Below, one piece after another: positions 11,866 through 41,033 of a stretch of DNA of 64,000 bases. The stretch is from an uncultured Candidatus Saccharibacteria bacterium. Its GTDB lineage: Bacteria; Patescibacteriota; Minisyncoccia; Phycocordibacterales; PALSA-1337. Each line of letters begins with the position of its first letter. Position 1 is the first letter of the stretch. The translations under genes and the position numbers were made by a program. The stretch covers positions 5,822-69,821 of the forward strand of contig CAZLQL010000003.1 of the NCBI GenBank assembly GCA_964561875.1. Direction: 5' to 3'. Under the pieces are notes generated by a model, which was given only the letters and a program-made list of their open reading frames with translations, ran no database searches and had not been told where the DNA came from.

Positions 11866-13074
11866 ATGGAAAAGGGGGTAAATAACAGCCAAAACAAGAT
11901 TGCACTGATCTTTTCAGTAGCTTATTATCCTTATCTAATAGGAGGGGCAGAGGTAGCTGTAAAAGAGATAACTGACAGAATAAATTCAGATTATGAGTTT
12001 GACATGATAACTCTTTATGCTGGAGAGAAAAGAGTGGAGAAAATTGGAAATATAAATGTATATAGAGTAGGTCCAAAGATAGATATCAGACAAGGTAAAG
12101 CAGTAAAAATATCTCATTTTATAAAAGTCATATACATCATAAGTGCATTTTTTAAGGCACTTATTTTAAATAGAAAAAGAAAGTATGATTTTATTTGGTC
12201 TATAATGGCAAGCTTCTCAGGATTTAGTGCATTATTTTTCAAATATATAAATAAAGAAATACCTTTTCTATTAACTTTGCAGGAAGGAGATTCTCTGGAA
12301 CATATACAAAAAGCTCTTGGTATTACATACCCGATATCTAAACCACTTTATAAAAAGATTTTTGTAAAGGCAGATTATATACAAGCTATATCAAAATTCT
12401 TGGCAGACTATGCAAAAGATATGGGTGCGGTTTGTGATATAGAGATAATTCCAAATGCTGTAGACTTTAAACTTTTTTCTAATCCTCAACAACAAGGTCA
12501 GATTAAGGCTTTGAAATCAGAGTTGGGAATAAAAGATGATGAAAATGTACTGATTACAACGTCTAGATTGGTACAAAAGAATGCTGTCGGGGATATTATC
12601 GATTCCATGTCATTTCTTCCAAAAAATACAAAACTTTTGATACTTGGTATTGGCTCGCAGGAGGATTTTCTTAAAGAAAAAGTAAGTTTACTAAAGCTTG
12701 AAGATAGAGTTGCATTTGTAGGTTTTGTTCCGTATAAAGATATTCCTTTATACCTAAGTATTTCACATGTATTTATAAGACCGTCATTATCTGAAGGTTT
12801 CGGAAATTCATTTATCGAAGCAATGGCTTCTGGCATTCCAGTTGTAGCTACAAAAGTTGGAGGTATAGTTGATTTTCTAATCGACAATCAAACTGGATTT
12901 TTTTGTGAAGTAAAGAATCCAAAAAGTATAGCAGATAAAGTCAATCTAATATTATCTAATTCTGATTTGAGAAGTGAAGTTATAGAAAATGCAAAGAAAA
13001 TGGTTAAAGAAAAATATGATTGGGATATTATCTCTAAGGATATGGTAGGTAATGTTTTTAATAAAATTAGATAA
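11866..13074 (+). CDS. Glycosyltransferase family 4 (GT-B, retaining)
   Basis: C-terminal EGFGNSFIEAMASGIPVVATKVGGIVDF matches the GT4/GT1 E-x7-E nucleotide-sugar binding motif. Confidence 0.8.
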   Translation: MEKGVNNSQNKIALIFSVAYYPYLIGGAEVAVKEITDRINSDYEFDMITLYAGEKRVEKIGNINVYRVGPKIDIRQGKAVKISHFIKVIYIISAFFKALILNRKRKYDFIWSIMASFSGFSALFFKYINKEIPFLLTLQEGDSLEHIQKALGITYPISKPLYKKIFVKADYIQAISKFLADYAKDMGAVCDIEIIPNAVDFKLFSNPQQQGQIKALKSELGIKDDENVLITTSRLVQKNAVGDIIDSMSFLPKNTKLLILGIGSQEDFLKEKVSLLKLEDRVAFVGFVPYKDIPLYLSISHVFIRPSLSEGFGNSFIEAMASGIPVVATKVGGIVDFLIDNQTGFFCEVKNPKSIADKVNLILSNSDLRSEVIENAKKMVKEKYDWDIISKDMVGNVFNKIR

Positions 13075-13075
13075 A

Positions 13076-14104
13076 ATGAAAATATTAATTTCTACAGGTA
13101 TATATCCACCTAAAACTTCCGGCCCAGCACAATATGCTTTCAATATGAATAGGGTTTGGACAAATATGGGTCATACAGTCTACGTCAAGACATTCGGTAT
13201 TGAAAATATGATACCAACAGGTTTAAGACATTTGTTTTATTTTATTAAGATCATACCTAGCGTAATATGGTCAGATTTCGTATTTGCTTTAGATACATTT
13301 AGTGTTGGATTACCAACTGCTCTAGCTTGTTTTTTATTTAATAAAAAATTGGTTATAAGAACGGGGGGTGATTTTCTTTGGGAAGGTTATGTAGAGAGAA
13401 CAGGTGATATGGCACTTTTGAAAGACTTTTATAAGACTAGACTAGATAAATTTTATATAAAAGAAAAAATAATTTTTTATTTAACAAAATGGACATTGTC
13501 TCATACAGATAAAATTATATTTAGTACATCATGGCAAAAAGATATATTCCTATACCCTTATGAATTGATTAATAAAAATAATGACGGGGAGATATGTATA
13601 GTAGAAAACAGATATGGAGAAAAAGAAAAACAAGATATAAAAAATATAATAAATAAAGATTTTATAGGGAGTACAAGACCACTTAAGTGGAAAAATCTTG
13701 GTTTACTAAATGAAGTTTTTAATGATCCTAAACTATCTCAAAATGGACTGAAACTTATAACAAATGAAATGCCATATCAAAAATTTATGGATATGATAAA
13801 AGAATCATACGCTGTAATACTTGTTTCTCTGGGTGACATAAGTCCGCATATGATCCTAGATGCAATACGACTTAATAAACCTTTTATCGTCACAGAAGAA
13901 AACGGTTTAATGAATAGAATTGCTGATATATCAATAACAGTAAATCCACTTGATCAAAACGATATAAAAGAGAAGATTGATTTCTTACTTGATAAAGATA
14001 ATTACAATAGACAAGTAGAAAAAATAAAATCATTCAATTTTATTCACACTTGGGAAGACATAGCAAAAGAGATTATTGAGATTTCAAATAGTATAAAAAA
14101 ATAA
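13076..14104 (+). CDS. Glycosyltransferase, GT-B fold (GT4-like N-domain)
   Basis: Likely start at MKILISTGIYPPKTSGPAQY (GT4 N-domain pattern); the track start 13052 overlaps the upstream gene. C-terminal domain is divergent. Confidence 0.5.
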   Translation: MKILISTGIYPPKTSGPAQYAFNMNRVWTNMGHTVYVKTFGIENMIPTGLRHLFYFIKIIPSVIWSDFVFALDTFSVGLPTALACFLFNKKLVIRTGGDFLWEGYVERTGDMALLKDFYKTRLDKFYIKEKIIFYLTKWTLSHTDKIIFSTSWQKDIFLYPYELINKNNDGEICIVENRYGEKEKQDIKNIINKDFIGSTRPLKWKNLGLLNEVFNDPKLSQNGLKLITNEMPYQKFMDMIKESYAVILVSLGDISPHMILDAIRLNKPFIVTEENGLMNRIADISITVNPLDQNDIKEKIDFLLDKDNYNRQVEKIKSFNFIHTWEDIAKEIIEISNSIKK

Positions 14105-14105
14105 T

Positions 14106-15089
14106 ATGAAATTATTATCCATTTCAACAGATAGAAAAATATTTGATAAAAATAGTAGTGTTGCATTGAGGCAAATTGATTATGCAAAAAAATATGAAGA
14201 AGTACACATTATCGTATTTTCTGATGTAAAATTCTCTGAAACTGTATTGGCACCTAATCTATGGATTTATCCAACTAGATCAAGTTCAAAATGGAAATAT
14301 ATATATGACGGTTTAAAATTGGCAAAATTTATCTTGAGTAAAAGGGGTATAACCCATATCACATGCCAAGATCCATTTGAAACAGGTTTAATAGGTGCTA
14401 TTTTAAAAAATAAAAATCCAAATGTTGAGCTTGAATTGCAAATACATACTGATATTGGAAGTGAATATTTTCAAAAGTTTAGTTTTTTAAATAGGATTAG
14501 AACTAGACTTTCATATTTTACTTTAATAAGAGCAGATCATATAAGAGTTGTTTCAAATAGAATCAAGGATTATTTAATTAAATTTATTGATTCATCAAAA
14601 ATAGAAGTTCGTCCAATAAAAGTAGATTTTGAAAAGATAAATAACTCCTCAATAACTACTGATTTACATAAACAGTATCCTCAATATGAAAAGATCGTTC
14701 TTATGGCAAGTAGATTGGAAAAAGAGAAAAATATAGACATGGCTATTGATGCTTTTTCTGAAGTTTTGAAGATGAGGCAAAATGTCGGCCTAGTTATCGT
14801 GGGTGATGGTAGTCAGAAACAATTACTTGAAAAAAGAGTAAAAGATTTGGGAATAGCAGGATCAGTAGTCTTTTTGGGATGGCAAAATGATGTGATTACT
14901 TACTATAAAACTTGTGATATATTTTTATCTACTTCATGGTACGAGGGGTACGGTCTATCTTTAGTAGAAGCACATAGTTTAGGAATAAAGGTTGTAAGTA
15001 CTGATGTTGGTATTGCAAAAGAATTAAATTTAAAAATTGTTAAATTTGATAAGACATCTATCGCTTGGGGGATTATCGAAAATATATGA
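14106..15089 (+). CDS. Glycosyltransferase family 4
   Basis: STSWYEGYGLSLVEAHSLGIKVVSTDVG matches the GT4 motif. Confidence 0.75.
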   Translation: MKLLSISTDRKIFDKNSSVALRQIDYAKKYEEVHIIVFSDVKFSETVLAPNLWIYPTRSSSKWKYIYDGLKLAKFILSKRGITHITCQDPFETGLIGAILKNKNPNVELELQIHTDIGSEYFQKFSFLNRIRTRLSYFTLIRADHIRVVSNRIKDYLIKFIDSSKIEVRPIKVDFEKINNSSITTDLHKQYPQYEKIVLMASRLEKEKNIDMAIDAFSEVLKMRQNVGLVIVGDGSQKQLLEKRVKDLGIAGSVVFLGWQNDVITYYKTCDIFLSTSWYEGYGLSLVEAHSLGIKVVSTDVGIAKELNLKIVKFDKTSIAWGIIENI

Positions 15090-16567
15090 ATTCTATAATG
15101 AAAAATACACTAGTAAAGTACATAATTTCAGGTTGTACTGCAGCCTTGGTAAATCTGACCACTCTACATTTTTTAGATATATATTCAGGTTTTCATTATC
15201 TATTAAGTGTTAATATTGCATTTATAACTGCATTTTTTATAAGTTTTTTTATGCAGAAGTATTGGACATTTAATGACAATAGGAAAGATAAGACTGGTCT
15301 GCAACTCATAAAATACTTCTCAGTTTCGATAATAAATGTCTTTTTAAATAGTTTTTTAATATATTTACTTGTAAGCAAAATAGAAATTTCAGGAATTCTC
15401 TTTTTAAGACAGGTTGTACTCGCTCAGATAATATCTGCGATAATTGTTGCTATCGAATCGTACTTTGTTTATAAAATATTGATTTTTGATAAAAAACCTA
15501 TTTTAAAACATGATAATAAGCCAAAAAGAATATTGATAATTACACAAAAAATAGATAAAGATGATAGCTATTTTGGCTTTTTCCATGATTGGGTAAAGTT
15601 GTTTGCTCAATCGTGTGAAAGTGTAACTGTTGTATCGCTCGAAACACATGGTTATGATTTACCAGGAAATGTCGAGGTTTTATCTTTAGGTAAAGAAGCA
15701 CAAAGATCTCGTTTTAATTATTTAAAATTATTCTACAAATACATAATAGAGAATAGGGATAAATACGATTCAGTATTTTGTCATATGAGCCCACTTTATG
15801 TGATCTGTGGTTATCTTGTGTGGAGTATTTTAAATAAAAAAATAGTTTTGTGGTACGTTCATAGATCTGTAGACTTTAAATTACGCTTATCACACCTGCT
15901 AGTAGATGAAGTTCTGACTTCTACAAAAGAGACCTTTGGTATTAAGTCAGATAAAATAAAATATCTAGGTCAAGCAGTGTCAGTAGAACATTTTTCAAAC
16001 AAAATCGGAGAAAGAAAACCAGATGGCTATTTTAATATAATAACCGTAGGAAGAATCACACCGATTAAAAGAGTTGATATTGCCATAGAATCTTTAGCAT
16101 TATTGATAGAAAGTAAGGTTCCAGCCAAACTATATATAGCTGGTGCACCAACTATGGAAGGGGATTTTGAATATGAATCAATGCTACAAAAAAAGATAAA
16201 GGATCTAGGTTTGGGTGATAGTGTTATATTTCTTGGTCCAATTCCTTATAAAAATATACCAAAATACTACTGGGAAAGTGATGTCTGTATAAACCTTGCA
16301 CCAACAGGAGGGTTGGATAAAACCGTACTCGAGGCAATGATGGCAGGTTTGCCAGTTATAACATCAAATATGGCATTTACAGATCACTTAAATGGTTATG
16401 TTAAAGATTTATTGTGTAATGATAGCGATCCAAAAGATACAGCTTCTAAATTATACAATCTATATAATTCCAAGAACTATTCTTTTGTAGGATTTTCTCT
16501 GAGAAAAGAGGTGCTCAAACGTTCTACACTAGATGCTCTAATTTTAAATATAATAAAAGAATTATAA
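15086..16567 (+). CDS. GtrA-like membrane domain fused to GT4 glycosyltransferase
   Basis: N-terminal ~140 aa are 4-TM with GtrA-family features (KYIISGCTAALVNL...QKYWTFND). C-terminal GGLDKTVLEAMMAGLPVITSN matches the GT4 motif. Start taken at the internal ATG. Confidence 0.6.
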   Translation: MNSIMKNTLVKYIISGCTAALVNLTTLHFLDIYSGFHYLLSVNIAFITAFFISFFMQKYWTFNDNRKDKTGLQLIKYFSVSIINVFLNSFLIYLLVSKIEISGILFLRQVVLAQIISAIIVAIESYFVYKILIFDKKPILKHDNKPKRILIITQKIDKDDSYFGFFHDWVKLFAQSCESVTVVSLETHGYDLPGNVEVLSLGKEAQRSRFNYLKLFYKYIIENRDKYDSVFCHMSPLYVICGYLVWSILNKKIVLWYVHRSVDFKLRLSHLLVDEVLTSTKETFGIKSDKIKYLGQAVSVEHFSNKIGERKPDGYFNIITVGRITPIKRVDIAIESLALLIESKVPAKLYIAGAPTMEGDFEYESMLQKKIKDLGLGDSVIFLGPIPYKNIPKYYWESDVCINLAPTGGLDKTVLEAMMAGLPVITSNMAFTDHLNGYVKDLLCNDSDPKDTASKLYNLYNSKNYSFVGFSLRKEVLKRSTLDALILNIIKEL

Positions 16568-16568
16568 A

Positions 16569-17636
16569 ATGAAAAAGATATGTTTTTTCGGTATATATGA
16601 TTCAAATTATTCTAGAAATAAAGTACTAATAAAGGGTTTTAAAGAAAATACTTTTGAAGTTTATGAATGCAAAATTGATCCGAGAAAATACGGCGGTTTT
16701 TCAAAATTTTATGAACTATATAAAGAGTATAAAAAGATAAAAGATATTGAATTTGACCACGTTATCGTAGCTTTTCCAGGTCATAGTGTAGTGTGGTTGG
16801 CTTACATTCTTTTTGGTAGAAATATTGTTTTTGATGCTTTCGTCTCTCTTTATAATTCAAATGTACAAGATAGGGAAAAGTATAGTAAATTTTCATTATC
16901 GTCTTTTAAAGACGCATTTCTCGATTGGTACTCTGTTTATTTAGCTAAAACAGTTTTACTCGATACAAATGAACATATCAAATACTTTTCTAAAAGATAT
17001 GGTTTAAAATCAGACAAAATGATTAGAGTTTTAGTTGGTACTGATACAGACATAATGAAACCAGATAAATATATAAATAATAATGAATTTGTATTACATT
17101 TTCACGGAAGTTTTATACCTCTTCAAGGGATTCAATATATAGTGCAGGCATATAGTATTGTATTAAATAAATATAGAGAAAATAATATCAGATTAAGAAT
17201 AATCGGTAGAGGTCAAGAAACAAATAAAATAAAAGAATTATCTAAGACTTTGAATATTTATGATAGGATCGATTTTATAGATTATGTGCCGTATGATGAA
17301 TTGGTAAAATACATAAATAATTCTCATATAAATCTTGGTATATTTGGTAATGGAATAAAATCAAACATGGTAATACCAAATAAAGTATATGAAGCTATTG
17401 CTTGTGGAAAGGCAGTAGTAACAGCAGATACCGATGCAATAAAAGAGGTTTTAATAAATAATGAAAATGCTATTTTGGTAACTAAAGCTGATAGTGAAGA
17501 ACTTGCAAAAGTAATAGTAGATTTGAAAAATAATAAAAATACTATAGATAGAATAGAGAATAATATAATAAAGTTGAGAGAAAAGGTGACTCCAAAAGCT
17601 ATAGTTTCTGATTTAATAAATAAGCTAAAATCATAA
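16569..17636 (+). CDS. Glycosyltransferase, GT-B fold (GT1/GT4-like)
   Basis: C-terminal NKVYEAIACGKAVVTADTDAIKEVL resembles the GT-B donor-binding motif. Confidence 0.5.
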   Translation: MKKICFFGIYDSNYSRNKVLIKGFKENTFEVYECKIDPRKYGGFSKFYELYKEYKKIKDIEFDHVIVAFPGHSVVWLAYILFGRNIVFDAFVSLYNSNVQDREKYSKFSLSSFKDAFLDWYSVYLAKTVLLDTNEHIKYFSKRYGLKSDKMIRVLVGTDTDIMKPDKYINNNEFVLHFHGSFIPLQGIQYIVQAYSIVLNKYRENNIRLRIIGRGQETNKIKELSKTLNIYDRIDFIDYVPYDELVKYINNSHINLGIFGNGIKSNMVIPNKVYEAIACGKAVVTADTDAIKEVLINNENAILVTKADSEELAKVIVDLKNNKNTIDRIENNIIKLREKVTPKAIVSDLINKLKS

Positions 17637-17637
17637 T

Positions 17638-18618
17638 ATGATAAATATTGCTTGTATAATTCCAAATAAAAAAGACGACTATCTCACAAATACTGTAATC
17701 GATGGTCTCTCTCAGCTTGAAAATGAAGGTGAAATAAATTATTTTGTTTCTTCAAATTTATATAAAAATGAAAATATTAAAGAAAAAAATAGGAGAGTAA
17801 ATGATAGTAATTTTATCGAAGAGGCAAAAAGTGCAGATATAATAATACTTTTTTGGAGTAAAGACGGGACAGATATAAATACTGCAAATAAAATAAATAG
17901 ATTTGATAAAACAGTTTTTATAGACGGTAGTGAATTGGGAGGTAATAAAAGACTAGATGAAGAAATTGTAAATAAAGTACAAAATCTAAAGTGGGAAAAT
18001 CAAGGAAAGATAGATGTTGAAATGATGCAAAAATGCATAGGATACTTCAGGAGAGAAAAGCCCTATATAAATGGAATAATCCCTTTTCCATTTGGTATAG
18101 AGAGAAAATATATAAATTGGAATAAAGAAATAAAAAAAGATATTGATTTTGTTTGTATATTCGGACAACAGGACTATCCACCACTTAGAAGAGAAGTAAA
18201 AGAAATACTTGAAGATTTCTGTAAAAGAAATAACTTTTCATATTTTACACAAAAAACAAAAAGTAAAGATGAATTTTACAATATTCTTTCAAGGGCAAAA
18301 GTTGGAATTTCTGTCAGTGGAGGAGGATATGATACAGCAAGATTTTGGGAAATATTGGCCAATAACTGTATTTTAATTACTGAAAAAATAGATATATATA
18401 GACCAGAAAATCATAGGTTAAATTATAAAAATATATTTGAATTCAATAATAAAAATGATTTTTTGAATGTTTTAACAAGAGTTTCTCAGTATATTGTAAA
18501 TGATTATGATACAGATTATATCAGTGATGAATATAAGGAAATTATAGAGAAACATGGCACAAGATCCAGAGTAAAAGAAATAATTGATTATTGTAAATAT
18601 AAAGGTATTATTAAATAA
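17638..18618 (+). CDS. Hypothetical protein within the glycan cluster (possible GT-B-like transferase)
   Basis: No recognisable motif. Co-directional and 1 nt from its neighbours. Confidence 0.3.
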   Translation: MINIACIIPNKKDDYLTNTVIDGLSQLENEGEINYFVSSNLYKNENIKEKNRRVNDSNFIEEAKSADIIILFWSKDGTDINTANKINRFDKTVFIDGSELGGNKRLDEEIVNKVQNLKWENQGKIDVEMMQKCIGYFRREKPYINGIIPFPFGIERKYINWNKEIKKDIDFVCIFGQQDYPPLRREVKEILEDFCKRNNFSYFTQKTKSKDEFYNILSRAKVGISVSGGGYDTARFWEILANNCILITEKIDIYRPENHRLNYKNIFEFNNKNDFLNVLTRVSQYIVNDYDTDYISDEYKEIIEKHGTRSRVKEIIDYCKYKGIIK

Positions 18619-19533
18619 ATGAATAAACAGTGTAATGTTTGTGGCGGAGAAGGATTGTATATATTAAATAAAGATGGTTTTGATATGTATAAATGTATCA
18701 AGTGTAACCTGGTATATGTGTATCCTGAACCTAAAAAAGAATATTTAAAGGATTCTGTATATTCTTTTGAATCTGGCTATCAATCACAAAAGCCAAAAGA
18801 TCTATCAAAAGTTCCTCTAACAAAATCTTATAAAAAGATTTTTGATTTTATCGAAAAAAAGGGAATAAAGGGAAAAATGTTAGATGTTGGTTGCTCAAAT
18901 GGTGAGTTTTTATTTCATGCTAAAAAGAGAGGATTTGAAGTGGTTGGAATTGAGCTTAATCAAAGAACAGCAGAAATAGCAAAAAATAACGGTATAAATG
19001 TTCATGTAGGAATAATTGACGATATCGTTCTACCTGAAAATAGTTTTGATTGCGTATTTTTAGGGGATATTATAGAGCATGTGCCGAACCCAAAAGATTT
19101 TTTAAATAGATGTTTATCTCTTGTTAAAAAGGGTGGTTATATAATAATTTCAACACCAAATCTTGATTGTATGTGGTCAAAAGCTGGATATTTTCTTTAT
19201 TCAGTATTCAAAATCCCTTGGTCATCCATAACTCCTCCTTATCATCTATTTCAGTTTAGTGTAGAAAATCTTGAAAAGTTAATGATTGATTTGGGTTTGG
19301 GTATTGATTCTGTTTGGTATAGTGGTAGGCCTAGTCTAAAATATGAATTAGGATCGTTGCATCTATTAAAAAGAGTAAAGAATTCAAGTGGTTTTAGAAA
19401 AATGCTTAATGGATTATACATGGTATTTGCTTTCACTTTTTATGCAATAATTTACTATATGATAAATATCTTAAAATTTATTAAAATAATTAAAAAGGAT
19501 TTTGCTATGGTGGTTGTTGGTATAAAAAAATAA
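18619..19533 (+). CDS. Class I SAM-dependent methyltransferase with N-terminal zinc ribbon
   Basis: CNVCGG...CIKCNLVYVYP zinc ribbon, then SAM motif I MLDVGCSNGEFL and motif II-like FDCVFLGDIIEHV. Confidence 0.7.
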   Translation: MNKQCNVCGGEGLYILNKDGFDMYKCIKCNLVYVYPEPKKEYLKDSVYSFESGYQSQKPKDLSKVPLTKSYKKIFDFIEKKGIKGKMLDVGCSNGEFLFHAKKRGFEVVGIELNQRTAEIAKNNGINVHVGIIDDIVLPENSFDCVFLGDIIEHVPNPKDFLNRCLSLVKKGGYIIISTPNLDCMWSKAGYFLYSVFKIPWSSITPPYHLFQFSVENLEKLMIDLGLGIDSVWYSGRPSLKYELGSLHLLKRVKNSSGFRKMLNGLYMVFAFTFYAIIYYMINILKFIKIIKKDFAMVVVGIKK

Positions 19534-19534
19534 T

Positions 19535-20593
19535 ATGAATAAGTTAAAACTATATATAGGATCTTTACCTTACAAAAAACCTGTTTTAGAGTTTCTACCG
19601 AAAGATATTCAATCTATTCCAAAAGAGAATATGTTTGGAGAAAGAAATATATTTGATACAGATTTTGAATATGTAGAAGTGGTTTCTGATCCTGAACAGT
19701 CTGAATATTTTCTATTGCCATATTCATACAATCATGTCTCAAAAGAAAAACATTATATAAATAGTTTTGGGGAATTGGCAAAGAAATACAATAAAAGAGT
19801 CATAGTCTTTTTACTTGGAGATTCAAATGAAGATATAGAGATTTCAAATTCTATAGTTTTCAGAATGTCTAAATACAAGACCAATATAAAAGGAAATGAG
19901 ATTATTATGCCTGCATACTCTGCAGATTTGGGTGCTATATATGGACTTAATTTCAGAGAAAAAAGCGAAGATAAACCAGTTATAGGATTTTGTGGTTGGG
20001 CAAGTATACCAAATCGAAAAACCAAGATTAAATATAAGATTAAAGAGTATTTTTGGAATATCTGGGGTTTATTTATAAAAAAGTACAATACAAGAATTCC
20101 TGGCGTGATATTGAGAGAAAATATAATTAATATTATTGAAAAGTCTAAAATAGTAAGGAATAACTTTATTATAAGAAAATCATATAGTGGAAATACTAAA
20201 ACAATTAGTCTTGATCCGAAGATTGCAAGAGAAGAATATATAAATTCTATAAAGGATTCAGATTATTATCTTTGTCCAAAAGGTGATGGTAATTTCTCGG
20301 TTAGATTTTTTGAATGCTTAAGTTTAGGTAGGATACCGGTCTTAATAAATACCGATATAGACCTACCTTTTTCGAATATTGTCGACTACAAAGACTTTAT
20401 TATAAAGATCGATATGGGAGATATAAGAAATATCGATAAAATCGTTTATGATCATTATTTTAAGACAAATAATAATGATTTTATAAATATACAAAAGAGG
20501 TGCAGAAATGTATTTGACCAATACCTCAATATTCATGTATTCTTTATGAATGTCCTTAAAAGAGATTTTCTCGAGAAAGTTCCTAAAGTATAG
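19535..20593 (+). CDS. Exostosin-like (GT47-family) glycosyltransferase
   Basis: YYLCPKGDGNFSVRFFECLSLGRIPVLINTDIDLPF matches the exostosin C-terminal signature C.P.GD..S.R..EA...GCIPV...D...LPF. Confidence 0.55.
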   Translation: MNKLKLYIGSLPYKKPVLEFLPKDIQSIPKENMFGERNIFDTDFEYVEVVSDPEQSEYFLLPYSYNHVSKEKHYINSFGELAKKYNKRVIVFLLGDSNEDIEISNSIVFRMSKYKTNIKGNEIIMPAYSADLGAIYGLNFREKSEDKPVIGFCGWASIPNRKTKIKYKIKEYFWNIWGLFIKKYNTRIPGVILRENIINIIEKSKIVRNNFIIRKSYSGNTKTISLDPKIAREEYINSIKDSDYYLCPKGDGNFSVRFFECLSLGRIPVLINTDIDLPFSNIVDYKDFIIKIDMGDIRNIDKIVYDHYFKTNNNDFINIQKRCRNVFDQYLNIHVFFMNVLKRDFLEKVPKV

Positions 20594-22082: not shown

Positions 22083-22085
22083 TTT

Positions 22086-24178: not shown

Positions 24179-24179
24179 A

Positions 24180-26051: not shown

Positions 26052-26114
26052 ACACCATTATATATAGTTTTGGCTAGTTTCTATAAAAATAATAGATGAT
26101 ATAATCAAAAAACT

Positions 26115-30586: not shown

Positions 30587-30595
30587 AATATCCAT

Positions 30596-33840: not shown

Positions 33841-33881
33841 TAATTGTATTTAAGAGCAGATTGTATTATAAATGATATAAT

Positions 33882-34511
33882 ATGACCATGAAAAATAGGC
33901 TGTATATGACTAGGGACGTGCTTATTAGTTTTTCTAATTATTTTAAGGGTAATACACTAGACTTGGGTGCTGGTACTGCAAAGTATAAAAATATAATAAA
34001 GCCTAGGACAACAAGTTATACAACATATGACATGATCCCTGGACCAAATATAGATATTGTCGGTGATATATTGAATTTGGAATTAAGAGACAATACATAC
34101 GATACGGTTATTTCTACACAAGTTTTAGAACATGTATCTAGACCTTGGATAATGGCAAAAGAGATATCTAGGATATTGAAGAGTGGAGGCTATTGTATAG
34201 TCACAGCTCCATTTATGGTACCTTTTCATTCTGATCCTCATGACTATTTCAGATATACAACCGAAGGCATGTCTCTTCTTTTTTCTGATGCGGGTTTGGA
34301 AATAATAGATTGTAAACCTTACGGTGGTGTATTTATGGTTATATCTGAATACATACATTTTAGATTTTTTAATCCTTATAATAAAGAATTAAATAAAATC
34401 CAAAAAAAGATTTTTAGTTTTATTCAAAAGACCTTAACTTTTTTTGAGAAATTAGCAAAAAATACTGGTATTGCCTATGCCAATGTTTATTTGATAGCAA
34501 AAAAGAAATAA
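33882..34511 (+). CDS. Class I SAM-dependent methyltransferase
   Basis: LDLGAGTAKY, TQVLEHV and LKSGGYCIVTAP. Confidence 0.65.
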   Translation: MTMKNRLYMTRDVLISFSNYFKGNTLDLGAGTAKYKNIIKPRTTSYTTYDMIPGPNIDIVGDILNLELRDNTYDTVISTQVLEHVSRPWIMAKEISRILKSGGYCIVTAPFMVPFHSDPHDYFRYTTEGMSLLFSDAGLEIIDCKPYGGVFMVISEYIHFRFFNPYNKELNKIQKKIFSFIQKTLTFFEKLAKNTGIAYANVYLIAKKK

Positions 34512-34512
34512 T

Positions 34513-35166
34513 ATGACCTTTATATTTCAACCAGAAAGATATTTGTTAACTAAACAAATAGAAAAGAATTCAAACTATATAAAAGGAATAGTACTGGATG
34601 TTGGAGCTGGGCACTATTCTAGATATCAGAAGTTTTTTAAATACGATAAGTATATAAAGATGGATATAAACCATGCAGAGCATGTAGATGTTGTGGGGAG
34701 TGTTGACTCTATACCACTTCAGGATGAGAGTGTTGATTCTGTTGTCTGCACTCAGGTTTTCGAACATATAAAGTATCCAGATAAAGGCGCCAGTGAAATA
34801 TTTAGAATATTAAAAAAGGGTGGATATGTTCTAGTTACTGTACCTCAGACAAATGAATTACATGAAGAACCGCATGATTATTTCAGGTATACGAAATATG
34901 GATTGAATAGAATATTTTGTGATGCTGGTTTTGTTAATGAAGTTATGGAGCAAAGAGGTGGTTTCTTTTCTACTGTAGCTCAAATGTTTATTAGATTTAC
35001 AACAGACAGTTTGAAGCTATATGAAAGAAAGATCCTGGGAAAGATAATCGGTAAGTTGCTATACATTATCGGTAGATTTTCTATATATTTAGATAAGATT
35101 ATAAATAGTGATTCAAGTAATAAACATGCAATAGGTTGGTGTTGTGTGTATAAAAAACCTTTATGA
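34513..35166 (+). CDS. Class I SAM-dependent methyltransferase (tandem paralogue of the preceding gene)
   Basis: VLDVGAGHYSRY, TQVFEHI, LKKGGYVLVTVP and the shared PHDYFRYT block. Confidence 0.65.
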   Translation: MTFIFQPERYLLTKQIEKNSNYIKGIVLDVGAGHYSRYQKFFKYDKYIKMDINHAEHVDVVGSVDSIPLQDESVDSVVCTQVFEHIKYPDKGASEIFRILKKGGYVLVTVPQTNELHEEPHDYFRYTKYGLNRIFCDAGFVNEVMEQRGGFFSTVAQMFIRFTTDSLKLYERKILGKIIGKLLYIIGRFSIYLDKIINSDSSNKHAIGWCCVYKKPL

Positions 35167-36329
35167 AGATCTTAATTGTATCAGATGATTTTCCGCCAAA
35201 AAGTTTTGGAGGTGCAGGTATAGTTGCAAGTAATCTAGCAAATAGTTTAAAAGATAGGGGACATAGCGTCTCAGTTTTTACAGCAAATGAAAACTATCAC
35301 ATATCTGAAAGGTGGAGATCATATCTGGGTCTATACAATCCAAAAGCAATAAAAGATTTTAAAAAAATCCTAATAGATTTTAAGCCTGATATCGTACATT
35401 TTCATAATATACACTCACATATTTCTTATTACACTATAGTTTTAGCAAAGAAAAGTGGTGCAAAAGTGTTTGTTACACTACACGATGCAATGTCGGTATA
35501 CTACGGTAAGGTTCCAGTAAAAAATGGTGATACAAAATACAAAGTCACACTATTTGAAATGTTTAAAGTTTTTGGTTTAAGAGTAAATATATTTAGAAAT
35601 ATCGTTATAAGATATATATTTTCATATGCAGATAAGATATTTACAGTCAGTGATTCTCTAAGAGAATTTTTATCTATAAATGGAATAAAAAATACTATAA
35701 CTATCCATAACGGTATAGATGTAGACGATTTTAAAATATATCCGGATATTGTTAGAGAATATAGAAATAATTTGGGATTAAAAGATACAGATAAAGTATT
35801 ACTATTTGGAGGTAGGTTGAGTAATATGAAAGGTGCAAAACTTACCATCGATTCATATATAAAAGTTTTAAATAAAGTACATGATGTAAAACTTATGATA
35901 GTAGGTAATGTGCCAAAACACGATAGTGATCTTATAAAATACGCAAAAGATAAAAATGTCTTTGATAAAATCATATTTACCGGCTGGATAGATCATGAAA
36001 ATATGGCAACCATATATCATTTATCAGATATAGTTTTGGTTCCTTCTATATATCTCGATCCTTTTCCAAATATAAATCTAGAGGCTATGGCTTGTGGTAA
36101 ACCTATTGTTGGAACAATATACGGTGGTACAAAAGAGGTGGTAAGGCATGGTGTAAATGGGTTATTGATTGATCCTTTTGATATAGAAATATATTCCAAA
36201 ACTGTTACAACTATGTTGAATGATAAAGAGCTACAGTCTGATATGGGTAAAAAGGGAAAGGATATAGTAGAAAAAGAGTTTAGTATAGATAAACAAATAG
36301 ATGAAATTCTATTGTGGTATAATTCATAA
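35163..36329 (+). CDS. Glycosyltransferase family 4
   Basis: PNINLEAMACGKPIVGTIYGGTKEVV. Confidence 0.8.
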   Translation: MKILIVSDDFPPKSFGGAGIVASNLANSLKDRGHSVSVFTANENYHISERWRSYLGLYNPKAIKDFKKILIDFKPDIVHFHNIHSHISYYTIVLAKKSGAKVFVTLHDAMSVYYGKVPVKNGDTKYKVTLFEMFKVFGLRVNIFRNIVIRYIFSYADKIFTVSDSLREFLSINGIKNTITIHNGIDVDDFKIYPDIVREYRNNLGLKDTDKVLLFGGRLSNMKGAKLTIDSYIKVLNKVHDVKLMIVGNVPKHDSDLIKYAKDKNVFDKIIFTGWIDHENMATIYHLSDIVLVPSIYLDPFPNINLEAMACGKPIVGTIYGGTKEVVRHGVNGLLIDPFDIEIYSKTVTTMLNDKELQSDMGKKGKDIVEKEFSIDKQIDEILLWYNS

Positions 36330-36341
36330 AAATAAAAAATA

Positions 36342-37091
36342 ATGGATAAAAAGACTATAATTGCAGATTTTTATACAAAAGAGAGTGTTCAGTATTCAAA
36401 AAAGAGGTATGAAGGAGAATTAAATACCTATACTCAATATTTGTTCAGAAAAAGAATGAATATATATTTTGATTTTTTGAGATATATAAAATCAAATGTA
36501 AATAAAAAAATATCTTTGTTTGATATCGGCTGTGCTGACGGTGTAGTTTTATTTAATACAGAATATATATTTTCAGATATGATAAGTTCATACACAGCTG
36601 TAGATATATCTAGTGGAATGATAGAAGTGGCAAACAATAATAAACCTAATGATAAATTTTCTTTTTACCTTAGAGGAAAAGAATCAAATTCAAATTATGA
36701 TTTAGTTACTGAGCTTGGCGTCCATGTACCTGATTTAAAATCAGAAATTAGTTATATAAAGCAGAAGTTAAATTCAGACAATTCTTATTTTATTTTTTCA
36801 AGTTCAAGTGGAGGTTCATTGCATACATATTTTAAGATAAGAAATAATCCAGAAACTAGTCACATAGGAGAATTAAAAAGATATAATGAAATAGAGAATA
36901 TATTAAAGTCAGAATTTAAAATAATAAAATCAATACCATACGGTTTGTTTATTCCAAAACTGTGGGCAAATGCAACGATAGGTAAGATGTTGCAACCTAT
37001 TATTGATAAAGTTTTTTCTTTTATAGTACCCGGTCTATTTCACGAGAAGATTTATCTTCTTACCCCTATAAATAAAGAAACTAAGGTTTAG
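36342..37091 (+). CDS. Putative SAM-dependent methyltransferase
   Basis: LFDIGCADGVVLFN is motif I-like. Confidence 0.45.
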   Translation: MDKKTIIADFYTKESVQYSKKRYEGELNTYTQYLFRKRMNIYFDFLRYIKSNVNKKISLFDIGCADGVVLFNTEYIFSDMISSYTAVDISSGMIEVANNNKPNDKFSFYLRGKESNSNYDLVTELGVHVPDLKSEISYIKQKLNSDNSYFIFSSSSGGSLHTYFKIRNNPETSHIGELKRYNEIENILKSEFKIIKSIPYGLFIPKLWANATIGKMLQPIIDKVFSFIVPGLFHEKIYLLTPINKETKV

Positions 37092-38306
37092 GATAAACAT
37101 AAACAACCAAGATACTCCATTTTCTATAACTGCACCTAGAACTCCAAATTTTGGTATCAGTATCATTCCAAATATTATAGTAGCGATATTACCAGTTATA
37201 TTTAATATATATAAAGTTTTTGTATCTTTGATTATTTGGAAATAAAGTGACAATAAGTAAATTCCAGGGAAGGTTATAAGCCCTAGCATGTATATTCTTG
37301 AATAAAATATAGACTCAATGTATTTGGGGAATAGTAAGGCATATATCTCTGGTGAAAGAAAATAATATGCAATAACTATGAGTACCGAAAGGAAAGTCAA
37401 TCTCGTAACCTTATCTGTTATGCTATAACGCAAATCTTTTTCATTTAGTTCTGCAAATTTCGGTAAGCCGATATTAAATATATTTTTAAAGAACGATCTT
37501 ACTTGTTCTGGTAATGCATTTGCAAATGAGTAAACAGCAAGTGGGGCAGATCCTATATAATGAAATAAGAGTATTTTATCTACTTGATTTGCAAATGTAC
37601 CGATAAAACCCATAACACTTAGATGATGACCGTATTTGATCATGCTATTGTCTGCAGTATCAATGCTAGGTTTATATACTCTTATTGTGTAGAAATAGAA
37701 TATGGCATTAAGTATAAGAGTGCTTGAAAAGTATCCTAAAATTAGAAGTATTATATTTGGATTAAAAATTGCTACTATACATACTGTAGCCACATTTACT
37801 ATCTGTGTTACAAGCCAAAATATTGTTCCCCTTTTAAAATCCTTCTTTCCAGAGAGAAAAGCACCATACATACTAACTGCATTTGTGATAGGTAGGGTAA
37901 CACTTACAATAATAAATGATATTGCAAATAAATTATTATCATTTAAGAAATAATATAGACCAGTTCCTAAAGATACTATAGATATAATACTTCCCCAGAT
38001 CAATTGATTTTTTACTGCAAGAAATATAGTTCCATAAGAACCTTTTGCAACTGCTTGTGTTAGACTCGATCCAAGTCCAGATAAAGATAGTCCACCTATT
38101 ATACCCGCTACTGATAGTATGAATTTATAATTTCCATACACTTCCTGGGGTAAGGCTCTAGCGAGAACAAGCGATAGTAGAAGTGAGGAAAATACAGAAA
38201 CTATTTGACCTATCGATAACCAGAAACTACCTTTTGCGAGGTAAACCATATCGGTTTTAAGGTATTTTTCACTAAAACGCAATACCTTATATATTGAATC
38301 TTTCAT
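37035..38306 (-). CDS. Polysaccharide flippase (Wzx/MOP superfamily)
   Basis: 423 aa with 12-14 TM helices, typical Wzx architecture. Convergent with the glycan cluster. Confidence 0.55.
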   Translation of the reverse strand: MKDSIYKVLRFSEKYLKTDMVYLAKGSFWLSIGQIVSVFSSLLLSLVLARALPQEVYGNYKFILSVAGIIGGLSLSGLGSSLTQAVAKGSYGTIFLAVKNQLIWGSIISIVSLGTGLYYFLNDNNLFAISFIIVSVTLPITNAVSMYGAFLSGKKDFKRGTIFWLVTQIVNVATVCIVAIFNPNIILLILGYFSSTLILNAIFYFYTIRVYKPSIDTADNSMIKYGHHLSVMGFIGTFANQVDKILLFHYIGSAPLAVYSFANALPEQVRSFFKNIFNIGLPKFAELNEKDLRYSITDKVTRLTFLSVLIVIAYYFLSPEIYALLFPKYIESIFYSRIYMLGLITFPGIYLLSLYFQIIKDTKTLYILNITGNIATIIFGMILIPKFGVLGAVIENGVSWLFMFILNLSFFIYRGKKINLLVK

Positions 38307-38380
38307 ATATTAAATCTATCATGTTATAGTCTTTTTTACATCTACATATTATTTTTCCTTTATGATATAGTTCAAGTCAT

Positions 38381-40603
38381 ATGAATTCAAAAACAATAGA
38401 AAATATATTAAAATTTACAGTATTTACTTCATTATTCGCAGTATTGTTTGTGCCACTTTATGTAGAAAATCACCTTTTCTTTCCTTTTATAACAGGAAAG
38501 GGATTTTTATTTAGAATACTTACTGAAATAGCTTTTGTATCATGGATAATATTGTTTATGAGAAATAGAGACTATTTACCAAAATGGTCTTCTATACAAG
38601 TTAGCTTTACTCTATTCACAATCGTAATCCTAGTCGCAGATATTCTAGGTCTAAATTTCTTGAGAAGCTTCTGGTCAAACTTCGAACGTATGGACGGTTT
38701 TGTAGGTCTTATACATCTATGGGGATATTTTATGGTCTTAACATCTGTCATGACATATAGAGTAGGGGACTTCTTAAATTGGAGAAGATATCTAAATACA
38801 AGTATATTTGTGTCTATAATAATTACTATATATTCTCTATTTCAATTGTTAGGTTGGGCTGATATCCATCAAGGTTCTACACGTCTAGATGCATCTTTGG
38901 GAAATGCTATATATCTTGCTGCTTACCTATTGTTCCATATATTTATCGCTATATATCTTGCTTTTGATTCTGCAGAAAGAAGAAATAAAATTCTAGTATG
39001 GTTCTATTCTGTATTATCGATTGTATTTGCTTTCTTTATGTATGAGACAGCAACAAGAGGAGCGGTACTTGGAGTTTTGGTGGGTCTTGTTGTTGGCCTT
39101 ATAATGCTTTCAATCTGGAGTAAAAAGGAAGATAAGGTAATAAGATATTCTTCAATTGGAATATTACTATTTCTACTTATATCAGTATCTATATTTTGGT
39201 TAAATAAAGATACAAAATTTGTTCAGGGAAACGATATATTGAGACGCTTCGCTTCTATATCTATAAGTGAAACTAAGACTCAAGCTAGAGGATATATATG
39301 GCCAATGGCAATAAAGGGTGCTTTCGAAAATAAAAAAACAACTATCATAGGTTCAGGACAGGAAAATTTTAACTATGTATTTAATGCAAACTATAACCCA
39401 AATATGTGGAGACATGAGCAGTGGTTCGACAGAGCTCACAACTCATATCTAGATTGGTTGGTTGCCGGTGGACTTCTTGGACTTATTGCATATCTGGCTA
39501 TATTTATATCAGCATTTTATATGATAATCAGAAGTGATATATCTATAAATAAGAAGGCAACACTCTTTGGTGTAATAATCGCTTATGGAATACAAAGTAT
39601 ATTTACTTTCGATAACCTAACTAGCTATTTATACTTCATAATAATTCTATCTATTATAGCTACACCAAGATCTACAAAACTTCATAATTGGATTTCAAAG
39701 ATACTATTATCAAATTCAAATAATTATCCAATAATAAGAGATTATTTATACACTCCTGTAGTTCTTATATTGTTTATAGTTACAATATACACAATCAATG
39801 TAAGACCTATACAAGCAAATACAAGACTTATAGATGCTATGATATCTTGTTCAGGTGGTCAAAATACTCCTTCAGTTGAAGCTTATCAAAATGCTTTGAA
39901 ACTTGATCAATATGTCGCAAATCAAGAGATAAGAGAACAATCGCTTGCTTGTGGAACAAATATAATAAGAAGCAATCTTTCACAAAGTGCAAAAGAGAGT
40001 TTTGCTTATTTTGTGGTTACAAATATAGACAAGCAGATCAATATCACTCCAAATGATGCAAGAGCTTTTTATCTAGGTGGTACATTCCTTGATGAAGCGG
40101 GTAATTGGTCAGCTGCAAATGTATTGCTTGAAAGAGCAAATCAACTTTCACCAAACAAGCAATCGATCATGCTTGAATTGGCCACAAACTATATAAATTC
40201 AAATAGAATGAATGATGCTGTAGAGATCACTAGAAAAGCTTATGAACTAGCTACTGATAACGATATATCTAGAGCAGCCTACATATCTGTTCTTATAGTT
40301 TCAGGACAAGAAGCAAAAGCAAAAGAAATATTCTCCAAGCAACCAGAAGCTTTCTATGATGAGAGAATTGTAAACGCCTATATGAATAAAAAGCAGTTTG
40401 ATAAAGCGGCTTCAGTATATAAAAAACTAATTGAAATTAATCCAGAATATAAACAATATTATCTACAACTAGCTGGAGTATATTACGCAAGTGGAAATAA
40501 ATATCTAACAATACAAGAACTTAAGCTAATAGGGGATAAATTCCCAGAATCAAAAAAGCAGATTGATGATGCAATAAAGGAAGTGGAAAAGAAATTGCAA
40601 TAA
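38381..40603 (+). CDS. O-antigen ligase-like (Wzy_C) membrane protein with C-terminal TPR repeats
   Basis: Polytopic N-terminal half containing AHNSYLDWLVAGGLLGL (O-antigen ligase HN..L...E.G..G motif) and a C-terminal TPR region. Confidence 0.6.
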   Translation: MNSKTIENILKFTVFTSLFAVLFVPLYVENHLFFPFITGKGFLFRILTEIAFVSWIILFMRNRDYLPKWSSIQVSFTLFTIVILVADILGLNFLRSFWSNFERMDGFVGLIHLWGYFMVLTSVMTYRVGDFLNWRRYLNTSIFVSIIITIYSLFQLLGWADIHQGSTRLDASLGNAIYLAAYLLFHIFIAIYLAFDSAERRNKILVWFYSVLSIVFAFFMYETATRGAVLGVLVGLVVGLIMLSIWSKKEDKVIRYSSIGILLFLLISVSIFWLNKDTKFVQGNDILRRFASISISETKTQARGYIWPMAIKGAFENKKTTIIGSGQENFNYVFNANYNPNMWRHEQWFDRAHNSYLDWLVAGGLLGLIAYLAIFISAFYMIIRSDISINKKATLFGVIIAYGIQSIFTFDNLTSYLYFIIILSIIATPRSTKLHNWISKILLSNSNNYPIIRDYLYTPVVLILFIVTIYTINVRPIQANTRLIDAMISCSGGQNTPSVEAYQNALKLDQYVANQEIREQSLACGTNIIRSNLSQSAKESFAYFVVTNIDKQINITPNDARAFYLGGTFLDEAGNWSAANVLLERANQLSPNKQSIMLELATNYINSNRMNDAVEITRKAYELATDNDISRAAYISVLIVSGQEAKAKEIFSKQPEAFYDERIVNAYMNKKQFDKAASVYKKLIEINPEYKQYYLQLAGVYYASGNKYLTIQELKLIGDKFPESKKQIDDAIKEVEKKLQ

Positions 40604-41026: not shown

Positions 41027-41033
41027 TTCTTTA

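Follow-up and report, generated by a model that had tools for sequence, protein, structure and literature searches.

What glycan is made by a methyltransferase-rich gene cluster that takes up some 30 kb of a reduced bacterial genome, and onto what is it transferred? The question is raised by a locus in a stretch of 64,000 nucleotides (nt) of contig CAZLQL010000003.1, from an uncultured Candidatus Saccharibacteria bacterium; this whole stretch is called the window below, and all coordinates without a contig name are positions in it. An original prediction, made from the letters and their open reading frames (ORFs), had placed a glycan-biosynthesis cluster at 11866–40603. The host is an ultra-small member of the Patescibacteria or Candidate Phyla Radiation (CPR), mostly uncultured episymbionts whose surface decides host attachment and the phages that infect them. 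To our knowledge, almost nothing is known about CPR surface glycans. The gene families bear out the assignment to glycan biosynthesis. In the reading that we prefer, and to which we give a probability of about 0.6, the locus is the lineage-specific part of a cell-surface glycoconjugate pathway with two coupled branches, one building an oligosaccharide inside the cell and the other loading and tailoring a single lipid-linked sugar.

The cluster is a selected functional unit, collinear in three related Patescibacteria lineages. Identical proteins were found in three Logan assemblies. The closest genome contig, L004, which comes from a metagenome-assembled genome (MAG) labelled Candidatus Saccharibacteria, encodes proteins with 77–95% amino acid identity (87% for the GT-C glycosyltransferase at 20550), and its gene order is exactly that of the window over the 22 kb retrieved. 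The interleaved order is also retained in contigs L084 (from GCA_044228445.1), L085 and L086 (both from SRR27639470), in which the GT-C orthologues are 52–55% identical to that of the window. The relatives differ in an extra methyltransferase after the AsnB gene and, in L085, one more still. The end of L086 is the same as that of the window: a Wzx flippase, a ligase-like protein with a tetratricopeptide repeat domain (ligase-TPR), MurB, SecA, an epimerase, a DUF192 protein and ribonucleotide reductase.

The packing of the genes agrees with this unity. The DNA of the locus is AT-rich (GC ~29% across the region), and the co-directional run on the plus strand, 9912–37091, holds 24 genes in 27,180 bp with a total of 139 nt of intergenic DNA. 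These counts were made after gene starts had been refined to positions conserved in orthologues (e.g. 13052 to 13076, 15065 to 15086 and 29519 to 29570). The junctions include five ATGA overlaps (six if MT2 starts at 26822), seven one-nt gaps and two zero gaps, so that the tight packing noticed at first sight holds, but the "many" ATGA overlaps were somewhat overstated. A hairpin scan found no strong terminator-like hairpin inside the run; good ones were found only outside it, at 9272–9295 and at 40686–40717. The second of these, an intrinsic-terminator-like hairpin on the plus strand with a 14 bp stem and a T run, lies just past the last gene and closes the locus. We regard the cluster as a functional unit because its interleaved order is kept across lineages and no terminator-like hairpins break it. 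A concatenation of unrelated operons is rejected on the same grounds, given the absence of internal hairpins, the minimal spacing and an order kept down to ~50% protein identity.

The limits of the unit needed some revision. In the ORF listing, the span 11866–40603 contains 25 genes (about 26 had been counted), of which 23 are on the plus strand (11866–37091), one is on the minus strand (37035–38306) and one is again on the plus strand (38381–40603). A single co-directional cluster was correctly recognised, but the operon begins one gene earlier, at a TrwB/VirD4-like ATPase. This soluble P-loop ATPase of the TrwB/VirD4/TraD type (9912–11861, plus strand, 649 residues, no transmembrane (TM) helix) matches TrwB_AAD_bind (36.6 bits), DUF87 (29.8 bits) and TraG-D_C (25.3 bits) in Pfam, all over the cutoffs. 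It is assigned to the operon because of its position and conservation: 4 nt separate its 3' end (11861) from the first family 4 glycosyltransferase (GT4) gene, L084 has the same ATPase directly 5' of its first GT4, and in L085 this place is taken by a gene that is cut off. A mobile-element origin, which the VirD4-like ATPase brought to mind, is unsupported, as the ATPase and the cluster have the same chromosomal neighbours across lineages. An extended -10 promoter-like element, TGGTATAAT (9883–9891, plus strand), was read from the sequence 21 nt 5' of the ATPase start codon, shortly past a terminator-like hairpin (9796–9836). It probably marks the operon start and is offered as a lead; in a promoter consensus scan of the region, matches were overall not enriched relative to shuffled sequence. 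At the distal end, the Wzx gene (37035–38306, minus strand) is convergent with the run and overlaps its 3' end, and the ligase-TPR gene begins 74 nt beyond.

The families of the encoded proteins were assigned from Pfam and NCBIfam profile scores relative to the model cutoffs, hhalign, TM-helix prediction and the domain content of homologues. Judged by Pfam and homologues, the predicted inventory (six to seven GT4s, two GT2s, a GT9, a GT47-like and a GT-C enzyme, a YfhO-like protein, AsnB, a di-iron protein, Wzx and a Wzy_C protein with TPR) is essentially right. All genes described in this and the next four paragraphs are on the plus strand. Six proteins are clear GT4s in Pfam (11866, 14106, 15065, 16569, 22086 and 35163), and two more are weak GT-B candidates. 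The first GT4 (GT4_a, 11866–13074) matches Glycos_transf_1 with 141 bits and Glyco_transf_4 with 43 bits, GT4_c (14106–15089) matches Glycos_transf_1 with 106 bits, GT4_e (16569–17636) matches the same family with 82 bits, GT4_g (22086–23234) matches Glyco_trans_1_4 with 69 bits, and GT4_h (35163–36329) matches Glycos_transf_1 with 132 bits and Glyco_transf_4 with 79 bits. The remaining clear GT4, listed at 15065 and refined to 15086–16567, is fused to a GtrA/DPMS-type domain of four hydrophobic TM helices (GtrA_DPMS_TM, 69 bits, residues 18–141; Glycos_transf_1, 78 bits, residues 316–469), and this GtrA-GT4 fusion is also present in L084 and L085.

The two divergent candidates are weaker. The protein at 13076–14104, which starts at a conserved Met, scores just 16.8 bits with Glycos_transf_1, and an alignment of its orthologues compared with GT4s gives an hhalign probability of 61% (E 8e-5) over the C-terminal domain; it is a probable GT4 relative. 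The protein at 17638–18618 is conserved in L004, L084 and L085 and might be a CgeB/Glyco_trans_1_2-like glycosyltransferase (Glyco_trans_1_2, 18.7 bits, under the cutoff). Its comparison with GT4s by hhalign is not significant, and its single-sequence AlphaFold2 model is poor, with a predicted local distance difference test score (pLDDT) of 43. Two further cytoplasmic families are better supported. A GT47 (exostosin)-like glycosyltransferase (19535–20593) matches Exostosin_GT47 with 61 bits (cutoff 33.4), and a GT9 of the heptosyltransferase family (28411–29580) matches Glyco_transf_9 with 67.5 bits (cutoff 22); specific heptosyltransferase models score 58–78 bits with the latter, none reaching its cutoff.

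Two membrane proteins belong to the GT-C class. The first (20550–22082, 510 residues, ~9 TM helices) has no Pfam match of its own, and is assigned to the PMT_2/ArnT/GT39 type because its homologues carry PMT_2/PMT domains: all 58 come from Patescibacteria-type sources, many have PF13231/PF02366 (PMT_2/PMT), and some are fused to GtrA or GT2. The second (31519–33840, 773 residues) is a YfhO-family GT-C glycosyltransferase. Its direct YfhO (PF09586) score of 25.0 bits is under the gathering cutoff of 28.5, and the assignment rests on transitive evidence that we consider sufficient: the protein has 908 relatives, 32 of the 38 sampled match PF09586 (best E 1.4e-17), and its family profile aligns with bona fide Bacteroidota YfhO with an hhalign probability of 99.8% (E 4e-28). 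Sequence searches of the Protein Data Bank (PDB) with the YfhO-like and di-iron proteins returned nothing useful.

Two GT2s and an amidotransferase are encoded side by side. The first GT2 (23231–24178; Glycos_transf_2, 122 bits) is of the GtrB/ArnC type, with C-terminal TM helices at residues 239–257 and 272–290. It aligns over its full length to ArnC (201 bits) and PgfS (157 bits), both under the equivalog cutoffs, and is a probable polyprenyl-phosphate sugar synthase. The AsnB-type glutamine amidotransferase that follows (24180–26051; Asn_synthase, 315 bits, plus GATase_6/7) begins with MCGIVG, in which the N-terminal nucleophile Cys2 is present. Its nearest NCBIfam model is TIGR03108 (exopolysaccharide-associated amidotransferase; 558 bits, under the cutoff), and it probably amidates a sugar carboxylate. 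Paired GtrB and AsnB genes are also found in L006 and L007, otherwise different glycan loci from Paceibacterota and Saccharibacteria MAGs, which suggests a conserved two-gene unit that joins a lipid-linked sugar with amidation. The second GT2 (26115–26825; Glycos_transf_2, 90 bits) is short, soluble and AglJ/DPM1-like (AglJ model, 66 bits). It had also been predicted to use polyprenyl phosphate, but this role is uncertain because its relatives fuse the GT2 to a methyltransferase. The broader expectation of lipid-linked donors and extracytoplasmic transfer is supported by the GtrB/ArnC-type GT2, the GtrA domain and the two GT-C enzymes.

The predicted seven class I S-adenosylmethionine (SAM)-dependent methyltransferases were all recovered, one of them with a weak match. 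All seven contain a variant of the motif I-like D/E-x-G-x-x-x-G, and six (18619, 26795, 27685, 30596, 33882 and 34513) score above Pfam cutoffs. MT1 (18619–19533; Methyltransf_23, 70 bits; hydrophobic C-terminal tail), MT2 (26795–27688; Methyltransf_23, 93 bits; the alternative start at 26822 creates an ATGA overlap) and MT4 (30596–31522; Methyltransf_23, 85 bits) are paralogues in which the methyltransferase domain is accompanied by a double-CxxC zinc ribbon. They share 28–33% identity (28–30% between MT1 and MT2 or MT4), and MT4 always adjoins the di-iron gene. MT3 (27685–28410; Methyltransf_11, 85 bits) has a hydrophobic C-terminal membrane segment in the region 128–238. The small enzymes MT5 (33882–34511; Methyltransf_11, 48 bits) and MT6 (34513–35166; Methyltransf_11, 50 bits) are tandem paralogues with 41% identity. 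The last gene of the co-directional run encodes the divergent MT7 (36342–37091; Methyltransf_23, 23.7 bits), which has a motif I-like LFDIGCADG; all its matches are under cutoffs, and its orthologue in L086 has no recorded Pfam match. No methyltransferase reaches the cutoff of a functionally specific NCBIfam equivalog, so none was reassigned to a non-glycan function. Membership in other pathways (UbiG, BioC, MetW, CmoB etc.) is rejected, as these matches are generic and far under cutoffs. The number of methyltransferases evidently changes fast in the evolution of the cluster: where the window has MT5 and MT6, L086 has just one gene of their type, and the relatives carry extra methyltransferases elsewhere. 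Furthermore, the second GT2 and MT2 are one fused protein of 537–540 residues in L084 (16329–17951) and L085 (16333–17946), and separate overlapping genes (26115–27688) in the window, a split also found in the close relative L004. This fission or fusion physically ties glycosyl transfer to methylation.

The cluster further encodes a membrane di-iron protein of the FA_desaturase family (29570–30586, plus strand; PF00487, 84 bits, cutoff 29.7), a desaturase or hydroxylase in which all three canonical His boxes are intact (HEAVH, HWHHH and HMLHH). Its start, ATG 29570, was set from database calls of 338 residues. The best NCBIfam match, the arginine hydroxylase GntB, scores 49 bits, far under the cutoff. 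Beyond a handful of CPR genomes, the nearest relatives are found in Bacteroidota (Chitinophagaceae, Sphingobacteriales) with ~40% identity, and three such loci (L091, L092 and L093; 38–41% identity of the di-iron enzyme) were examined. In all three, an MT4 orthologue with 43–44% identity directly follows the di-iron gene, and an MT3-type methyltransferase and a GtrB-type GT2 with C-terminal TM helices accompany it. The MT3-type protein of L093 is 35% identical to MT3 over its full length, and the motifs WW(Y/F)RVR and PFGVS are common to both. YfhO accompanies the trio of MT3, di-iron enzyme and MT4 in one locus of the three (L091), and L093 has a short GT2 and two large multi-TM proteins. In all, the parts found in Bacteroidota match the window genes 23231, 27685, 29570, 30596, 31519 and 26115; part of the methyltransferase richness stems from this separate sub-module.

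The gene neighbourhoods suggest that the trio and GtrB perform an Arn/Gtr-like tailoring of a sugar linked to a carrier lipid. In L092 (10089–15000), the GT2/methyltransferase/di-iron/methyltransferase set adjoins flexirubin/aryl-polyene-like genes (aromatic ammonia-lyase, ketoreductase, ketosynthase, acyl carrier protein and an LpxL-like acyltransferase), a context that raises the prospect of a lipid or pigment, and not a sugar, as the substrate of the trio. A bolder proposal is that GtrB, MT3, the di-iron enzyme, MT4 and YfhO constitute a new Arn-like pathway common to Patescibacteria and Chitinophagales-type Bacteroidota, in which a polyprenyl-phosphate-bound sugar would be oxidised and methylated and then transferred outside the membrane to a surface polymer. 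We consider this doubtful. Were it true, a membrane di-iron enzyme would for the first time be given a part in decorating bacterial glycans; a literature search found no description of the di-iron/methyltransferase/YfhO association in the papers covered.

The two genes at the end of the locus form a backbone of a different kind. The Wzx-type flippase of the MOP family (37035–38306, minus strand, ~11 TM helices) scores over the cutoffs of both Polysacc_synt (68.5 bits) and Polysacc_synt_3 (46 bits). Its gene points towards the operon and away from the ligase gene, a position and orientation that recur in L086 and L089. The ligase-TPR protein (38381–40603, plus strand) consists of an O-antigen-ligase-like Wzy_C membrane domain (60.9 bits, cutoff 31.7, residues 213–372) followed by a C-terminal TPR domain. 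Its AlphaFold2 model has a pLDDT of 89 and a predicted template modelling score (pTM) of 0.85, and the order of the helices and the charge distribution place the TPR domain (approximately residues 499–739) on the external side, where the catalytic loop is also predicted. R226, R289, R303, H353 and D358 are invariant in 51 aligned sequences, and an FDRAHN motif (FDRAHNSYLDW) lies at the boundary between the large loop and a TM helix. By motif resemblance, these His and Arg residues may be equivalent to the catalytic residues of WaaL and PglL.

The ligase-TPR protein is far more conserved and widespread than the other cluster proteins. It has more than 3,400 relatives, the best 120 of which are 43–50% identical over the full length (cf. 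the 58 relatives of the GT-C protein at 20550). In all five distant genomes, a different glycan island directly precedes the gene, and in four of the five, Wzx or an ABC exporter lies directly upstream of it in divergent orientation. The island of L088 contains NeuB, an ATP-grasp protein and methyltransferases, with an ABC exporter; that of L089 contains GT10/GT11 fucosyltransferase-like genes, a GT-D and Methyltransf_21, with Wzx; that of L090 contains Rml genes, a GT2-Methyltransf_21 fusion, GT11 and GT17, with an ABC exporter; and that of L094 contains a carbamoyltransferase, GT11 and GT17, with an ABC exporter. The fifth genome has three TagF-like glycerophosphotransferases, a 2-epimerase and a cytidylyltransferase at this position. 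MurB and SecA lie directly downstream of the ligase-TPR gene in three places and ~8 kb away in L089; they were not seen within 10 kb of the gene in the TagF-type genome, and the L090 contig stops just past the gene.

Thus, Wzx and the ligase-TPR protein are both present as predicted, but neither is special to the cluster, and the ligase follows other islands elsewhere. The ligase-TPR gene is a CPR-wide core gene, usually beside MurB and SecA and with its own upstream region, and the cluster in the window is one unusually large variant of a hypervariable O-antigen-type island, with a single conserved transferase apparently serving all variants. That the Wzy_C+TPR protein is a universal CPR glycan transferase for a hypervariable O-antigen-like island by MurB-SecA is more likely than the Arn-like novelty considered above. 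A literature search found no description of the CPR Wzy_C+TPR family in the papers covered.

From the gene families, the compactness of the operon and the patterns of conservation, all of which are direct observations, we infer the assembly, methylation, flipping and transfer of the glycan, its sugars and its acceptor as follows. The first branch, deduced from family membership, would build a long non-repeating oligosaccharide on a polyprenyl-(pyro)phosphate carrier at the cytoplasmic face of the membrane, using up to ten GT-B enzymes (the six GT4s, the two divergent GT-B-like proteins, the GT9 and the GT47-like enzyme). MT1, MT2, MT5, MT6 and MT7, several of which have membrane-seeking tails, would diversify the chain by O-methylation, and AsnB might amidate one of its uronic acids. 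Unusual nucleotide sugars would not be the source of this diversity because the cluster encodes no enzymes for them. Wzx would then flip the chain, and the Wzy_C+TPR enzyme would transfer it to an extracytoplasmic acceptor. The sole Wzy_C protein is the conserved ligase-TPR, and a non-polymerised oligosaccharide is therefore more likely. A surface protein of the S-layer or a pilin, or else the cell wall, would most likely be the acceptor, given that no evidence of lipopolysaccharide (LPS) was seen. No candidate gene for the acceptor was identified within the window.

The second branch, deduced from conserved neighbourhoods, would follow the logic of the Gtr, Arn and CsbB-YfhO systems. The GtrB/ArnC-type GT2 would load a single sugar onto polyprenyl phosphate, and MT3, the di-iron hydroxylase or desaturase and MT4 would tailor the lipid-linked sugar or its product at the membrane, hydroxylation followed by O-methylation being the simplest chemistry. 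The GtrA-type domain might aid flipping, after which the GT-C enzymes (YfhO-family and PMT_2-like) would attach the sugar to the glycan outside the membrane. On the chromosome, the island lies upstream of a conserved backbone of flippase, ligase-TPR, MurB and SecA.

Several observations weigh against this two-branch pathway. The window contains no initiating phosphoglycosyltransferase of the WecA, WbaP or PglC type. The sole PF00953 protein of the window, at 4491–5618 (minus strand), is rejected as a priming WecA, as it scores 167 bits with MraY vs 34 bits with WecA; the priming enzyme may be encoded elsewhere in the genome. Pfam recognises no Wzy polymerase or Wzz among the cluster proteins. 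There are no nucleotide-sugar synthesis genes in the cluster, the nearest being the epimerase at 45045. All matches to NCBIfam equivalogs are under cutoff, and the sugars, linkages and methylation positions therefore cannot be named. The antisense Wzx gene stands between the ligase gene and the operon, and the ligase gene is housekeeping-like, so that its link to the glycan is positional only. A Foldseek search of the ligase model against the PDB found matches for the TPR domain only, and so does not show a resemblance of the membrane domain to WaaL or PglL. The di-iron enzyme could just as well act on a lipid as on a sugar. Finally, the conserved leading ATPase is not explained by the proposed pathway.

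Some of these observations would be accommodated by a pathway for a lipoglycan or glycolipid similar to lipomannan (LM), lipoarabinomannan (LAM) or the anchor of lipoteichoic acid (LTA), which is the alternative that survives best and which we nevertheless hold to be improbable. Here, the GT4s would glycosylate a membrane lipid directly, e.g. a scavenged diacylglycerol or phospholipid; the product would be flipped and extended outside by GT-C enzymes using polyprenyl-phosphate sugars, and the di-iron enzyme and some of the methyltransferases would modify the lipid. The window without a priming phosphoglycosyltransferase is in line with such a pathway, as is the classical action of FA_desaturase-family enzymes on lipids and the position of one Bacteroidota copy of the trio beside flexirubin/aryl-polyene-like lipid genes. 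Mycobacterial synthesis of phosphatidylinositol mannosides (PIM), LM and LAM likewise combines GT4s, a polyprenyl-phosphate-sugar GT2, a GtrA domain and GT-C enzymes, the same combination as in the cluster. Several of the GT4s also weakly match glycolipid synthases (MGlcDAG synthase, IagA/BgsA and GlcNAc-PG synthase), but these matches are far under cutoffs and no better than those to many other GT4 families. Priming enzymes are, moreover, often encoded outside such clusters, as WecA is in E. coli, and a Wzx paired with a Wzy_C protein is a hallmark of the transfer of polyprenyl-pyrophosphate-linked glycans.

Rather less probable is the view that two or more pathways are merely co-transcribed, with the GT4-rich set producing an oligosaccharide and the module of GtrB, MT3, di-iron enzyme, MT4 and YfhO acting on a different polymer, which could be teichoic-acid-like or peptidoglycan; the cluster would then have more than one product. 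The sub-modules do occur independently: the trio with GtrB (and YfhO in one locus) stands alone in Bacteroidota without the GT4 set, and the GtrB-AsnB pair alone is common to the other CPR genomes represented by L006 and L007. In Firmicutes, CsbB/GtrB and YfhO decorate teichoic acids independently of other glycan loci. In the window, however, the parts are interleaved (GT-C, GT4_g, GtrB, AsnB, GT2, MT2, MT3, GT9, di-iron enzyme, MT4, YfhO, MT5, MT6, GT4_h), this interleaved order is kept down to ~50% protein identity, and no internal terminators separate the parts. A cytoplasmic polymethylated storage or carrier polysaccharide made by the GT4s and methyltransferases is very hard to credit: the high methyltransferase-to-GT4 ratio resembles that of mycobacterial loci for methylglucose lipopolysaccharide (MGLP) and methylmannose polysaccharide (MMP), but Wzx, the GtrA domain, the GtrB-type GT2, the two GT-C enzymes and Wzy_C indicate that the intermediates are lipid-linked and that assembly takes place outside the membrane, and the GH57-type branching enzyme and acyltransferase of MGLP loci were not seen.

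The two-branch surface glycoconjugate pathway can also be compared with described systems. As in Wzx/WaaL O-antigen loci and PglL/PilO systems, a MOP-family flippase lies beside a Wzy_C enzyme whose large external loop contains conserved His and Arg residues, and a hypervariable glycan island occupies a fixed chromosomal position between conserved genes. Unlike WaaL, PglL and PilO, the ligase-TPR protein carries a TPR domain of ~240 residues C-terminal to its Wzy_C domain; it is highly conserved across the superphylum and usually encoded beside MurB-SecA; furthermore, no lipid A pathway was seen, and an ABC transporter replaces Wzx in some genomes. With the Gtr, Arn and CsbB-YfhO systems, the locus shares a GtrB/ArnC-type GT2 with C-terminal TM helices, a GtrA-family domain and GT-C transferases (YfhO, PMT_2/ArnT-like), and, like the Arn pathway, it seems to have additional enzymes that modify the sugar after it is loaded and before it is transferred. 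It differs in that the GtrA domain is fused to a GT4 and is not free-standing, and in that two methyltransferases and a membrane di-iron enzyme, in place of a deformylase, are the candidates for tailoring. WsaE, a bifunctional methyltransferase-glycosyltransferase of S-layer glycan synthesis in Geobacillus stearothermophilus, reportedly caps the chain by methylation in an ABC-transporter-dependent pathway. The linkage of a GT2 with a SAM methyltransferase (fused in L084 and L085, encoded by overlapping genes in the window) would be similar; the order and number of domains differ, and the ABC-transporter-dependent capping belongs to WsaE.

The closest described analogue is the protein O-glycosylation cluster of Tannerella forsythia, a polycistronic locus of 27 kb and 26 ORFs with Wzx, five glycosyltransferases, three methyltransferases and AsnB (PMC6120980). 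Both loci are polycistronic, measure ~27 kb with ~26 ORFs, and combine Wzx and several GTs with SAM methyltransferases and an AsnB-type amidotransferase; in both, a variable locus determines the species-specific glycan, with the transferase encoded separately or conserved. In contrast, some eight nucleotide-sugar genes for pseudaminic acid (Pse) and N-acetylmannosaminuronic acid (ManNAcA) are present in T. forsythia and none in the window cluster, which has seven methyltransferases vs three and ~12 cytoplasmic GTs vs five. The window cluster adds two GT-C enzymes, a GtrB-type GT2, a GtrA fusion, the membrane di-iron enzyme and the leading ATPase, and the transferase of its locus is a TPR-fused Wzy_C enzyme. 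T. forsythia is a diderm of the Bacteroidota, whereas the host of the window is a monoderm-like CPR bacterium.

In its overall logic, the locus follows known O-antigen and protein-glycosylation loci and changes no paradigm; its two conserved features, the ligase-TPR backbone and the trio, are testable leads. The locus suggests that reduced CPR genomes spend ~30 kb on a complex glycan that is diversified by methylation and amidation and not by costly exotic nucleotide sugars. Swap-in islands behind one Wzy_C+TPR transferase suggest a superphylum-wide genetic handle with which CPR surface glycosylation could be studied or disrupted. The tailoring trio is shared with culturable Bacteroidota, which could allow its chemistry to be worked out in a tractable organism.

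The glycan island is embedded in genes of cell-wall synthesis, with a peptidoglycan-precursor block upstream (8–7581) and MurB and MurJ downstream. The block consists of a MurD-like ligase on the plus strand (8–1354) and, on the minus strand, a pyridoxal phosphate-dependent enzyme, a MurC-like ligase, a small, weakly matching ATE_C/Fem-like protein, MraY (375 residues, with an N-terminal extension), an NlpC/P60 protein and an ATP-grasp ligase. It is followed by a DUF4015 putative glycoside-hydrolase-like protein (7859–9034, plus strand, 328 bits), and a candidate small RNA and its terminator lie between this gene and the locus. The candidate, so far unannotated, is a GC-rich segment of ~150 nt in AT-rich DNA (9112–9300, plus strand) that follows the best promoter-like match of the region (TTGACA-18-TATATT with TG, 9112–9141). 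It is predicted to form a long closed fold with a minimum free energy of -72.9 kcal/mol (z-score -7.8 relative to shuffles), and ends in the strong terminator hairpin at 9272–9295.

Two small GC-rich ORFs flank the glycan locus on either side, at 9461–9771 (plus strand, ~100 residues) and 40838–41026 (plus strand, 62 residues). Their products would be basic and have no Pfam matches, and each ORF has its own terminator-like hairpin, at 9796–9836 (read directly from the sequence, and closing the ORF that precedes the operon) and at 41033–41058. They might be coding or represent structured RNA; the 62-residue ORF is also called as a gene in Logan contigs. Rfam gave no credible match for the GC-rich flanking segments.

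Further downstream, a bacterial RNase P RNA of class A (51573–51922, plus strand, 136.7 bits) overlaps by 57 nt with the listed start of an ORF of 863 residues (51866–54457, plus strand), and this ORF therefore probably starts further downstream. Its product has ~13 TM helices, in a membrane domain without a Pfam match, and a C-terminal TPR domain. It was considered as a paralogue of the ligase-TPR protein and rejected, as BLASTP shows no similarity between the two. MurJ (54464–56143; TIGR01695, 237 bits) is encoded directly downstream of it.

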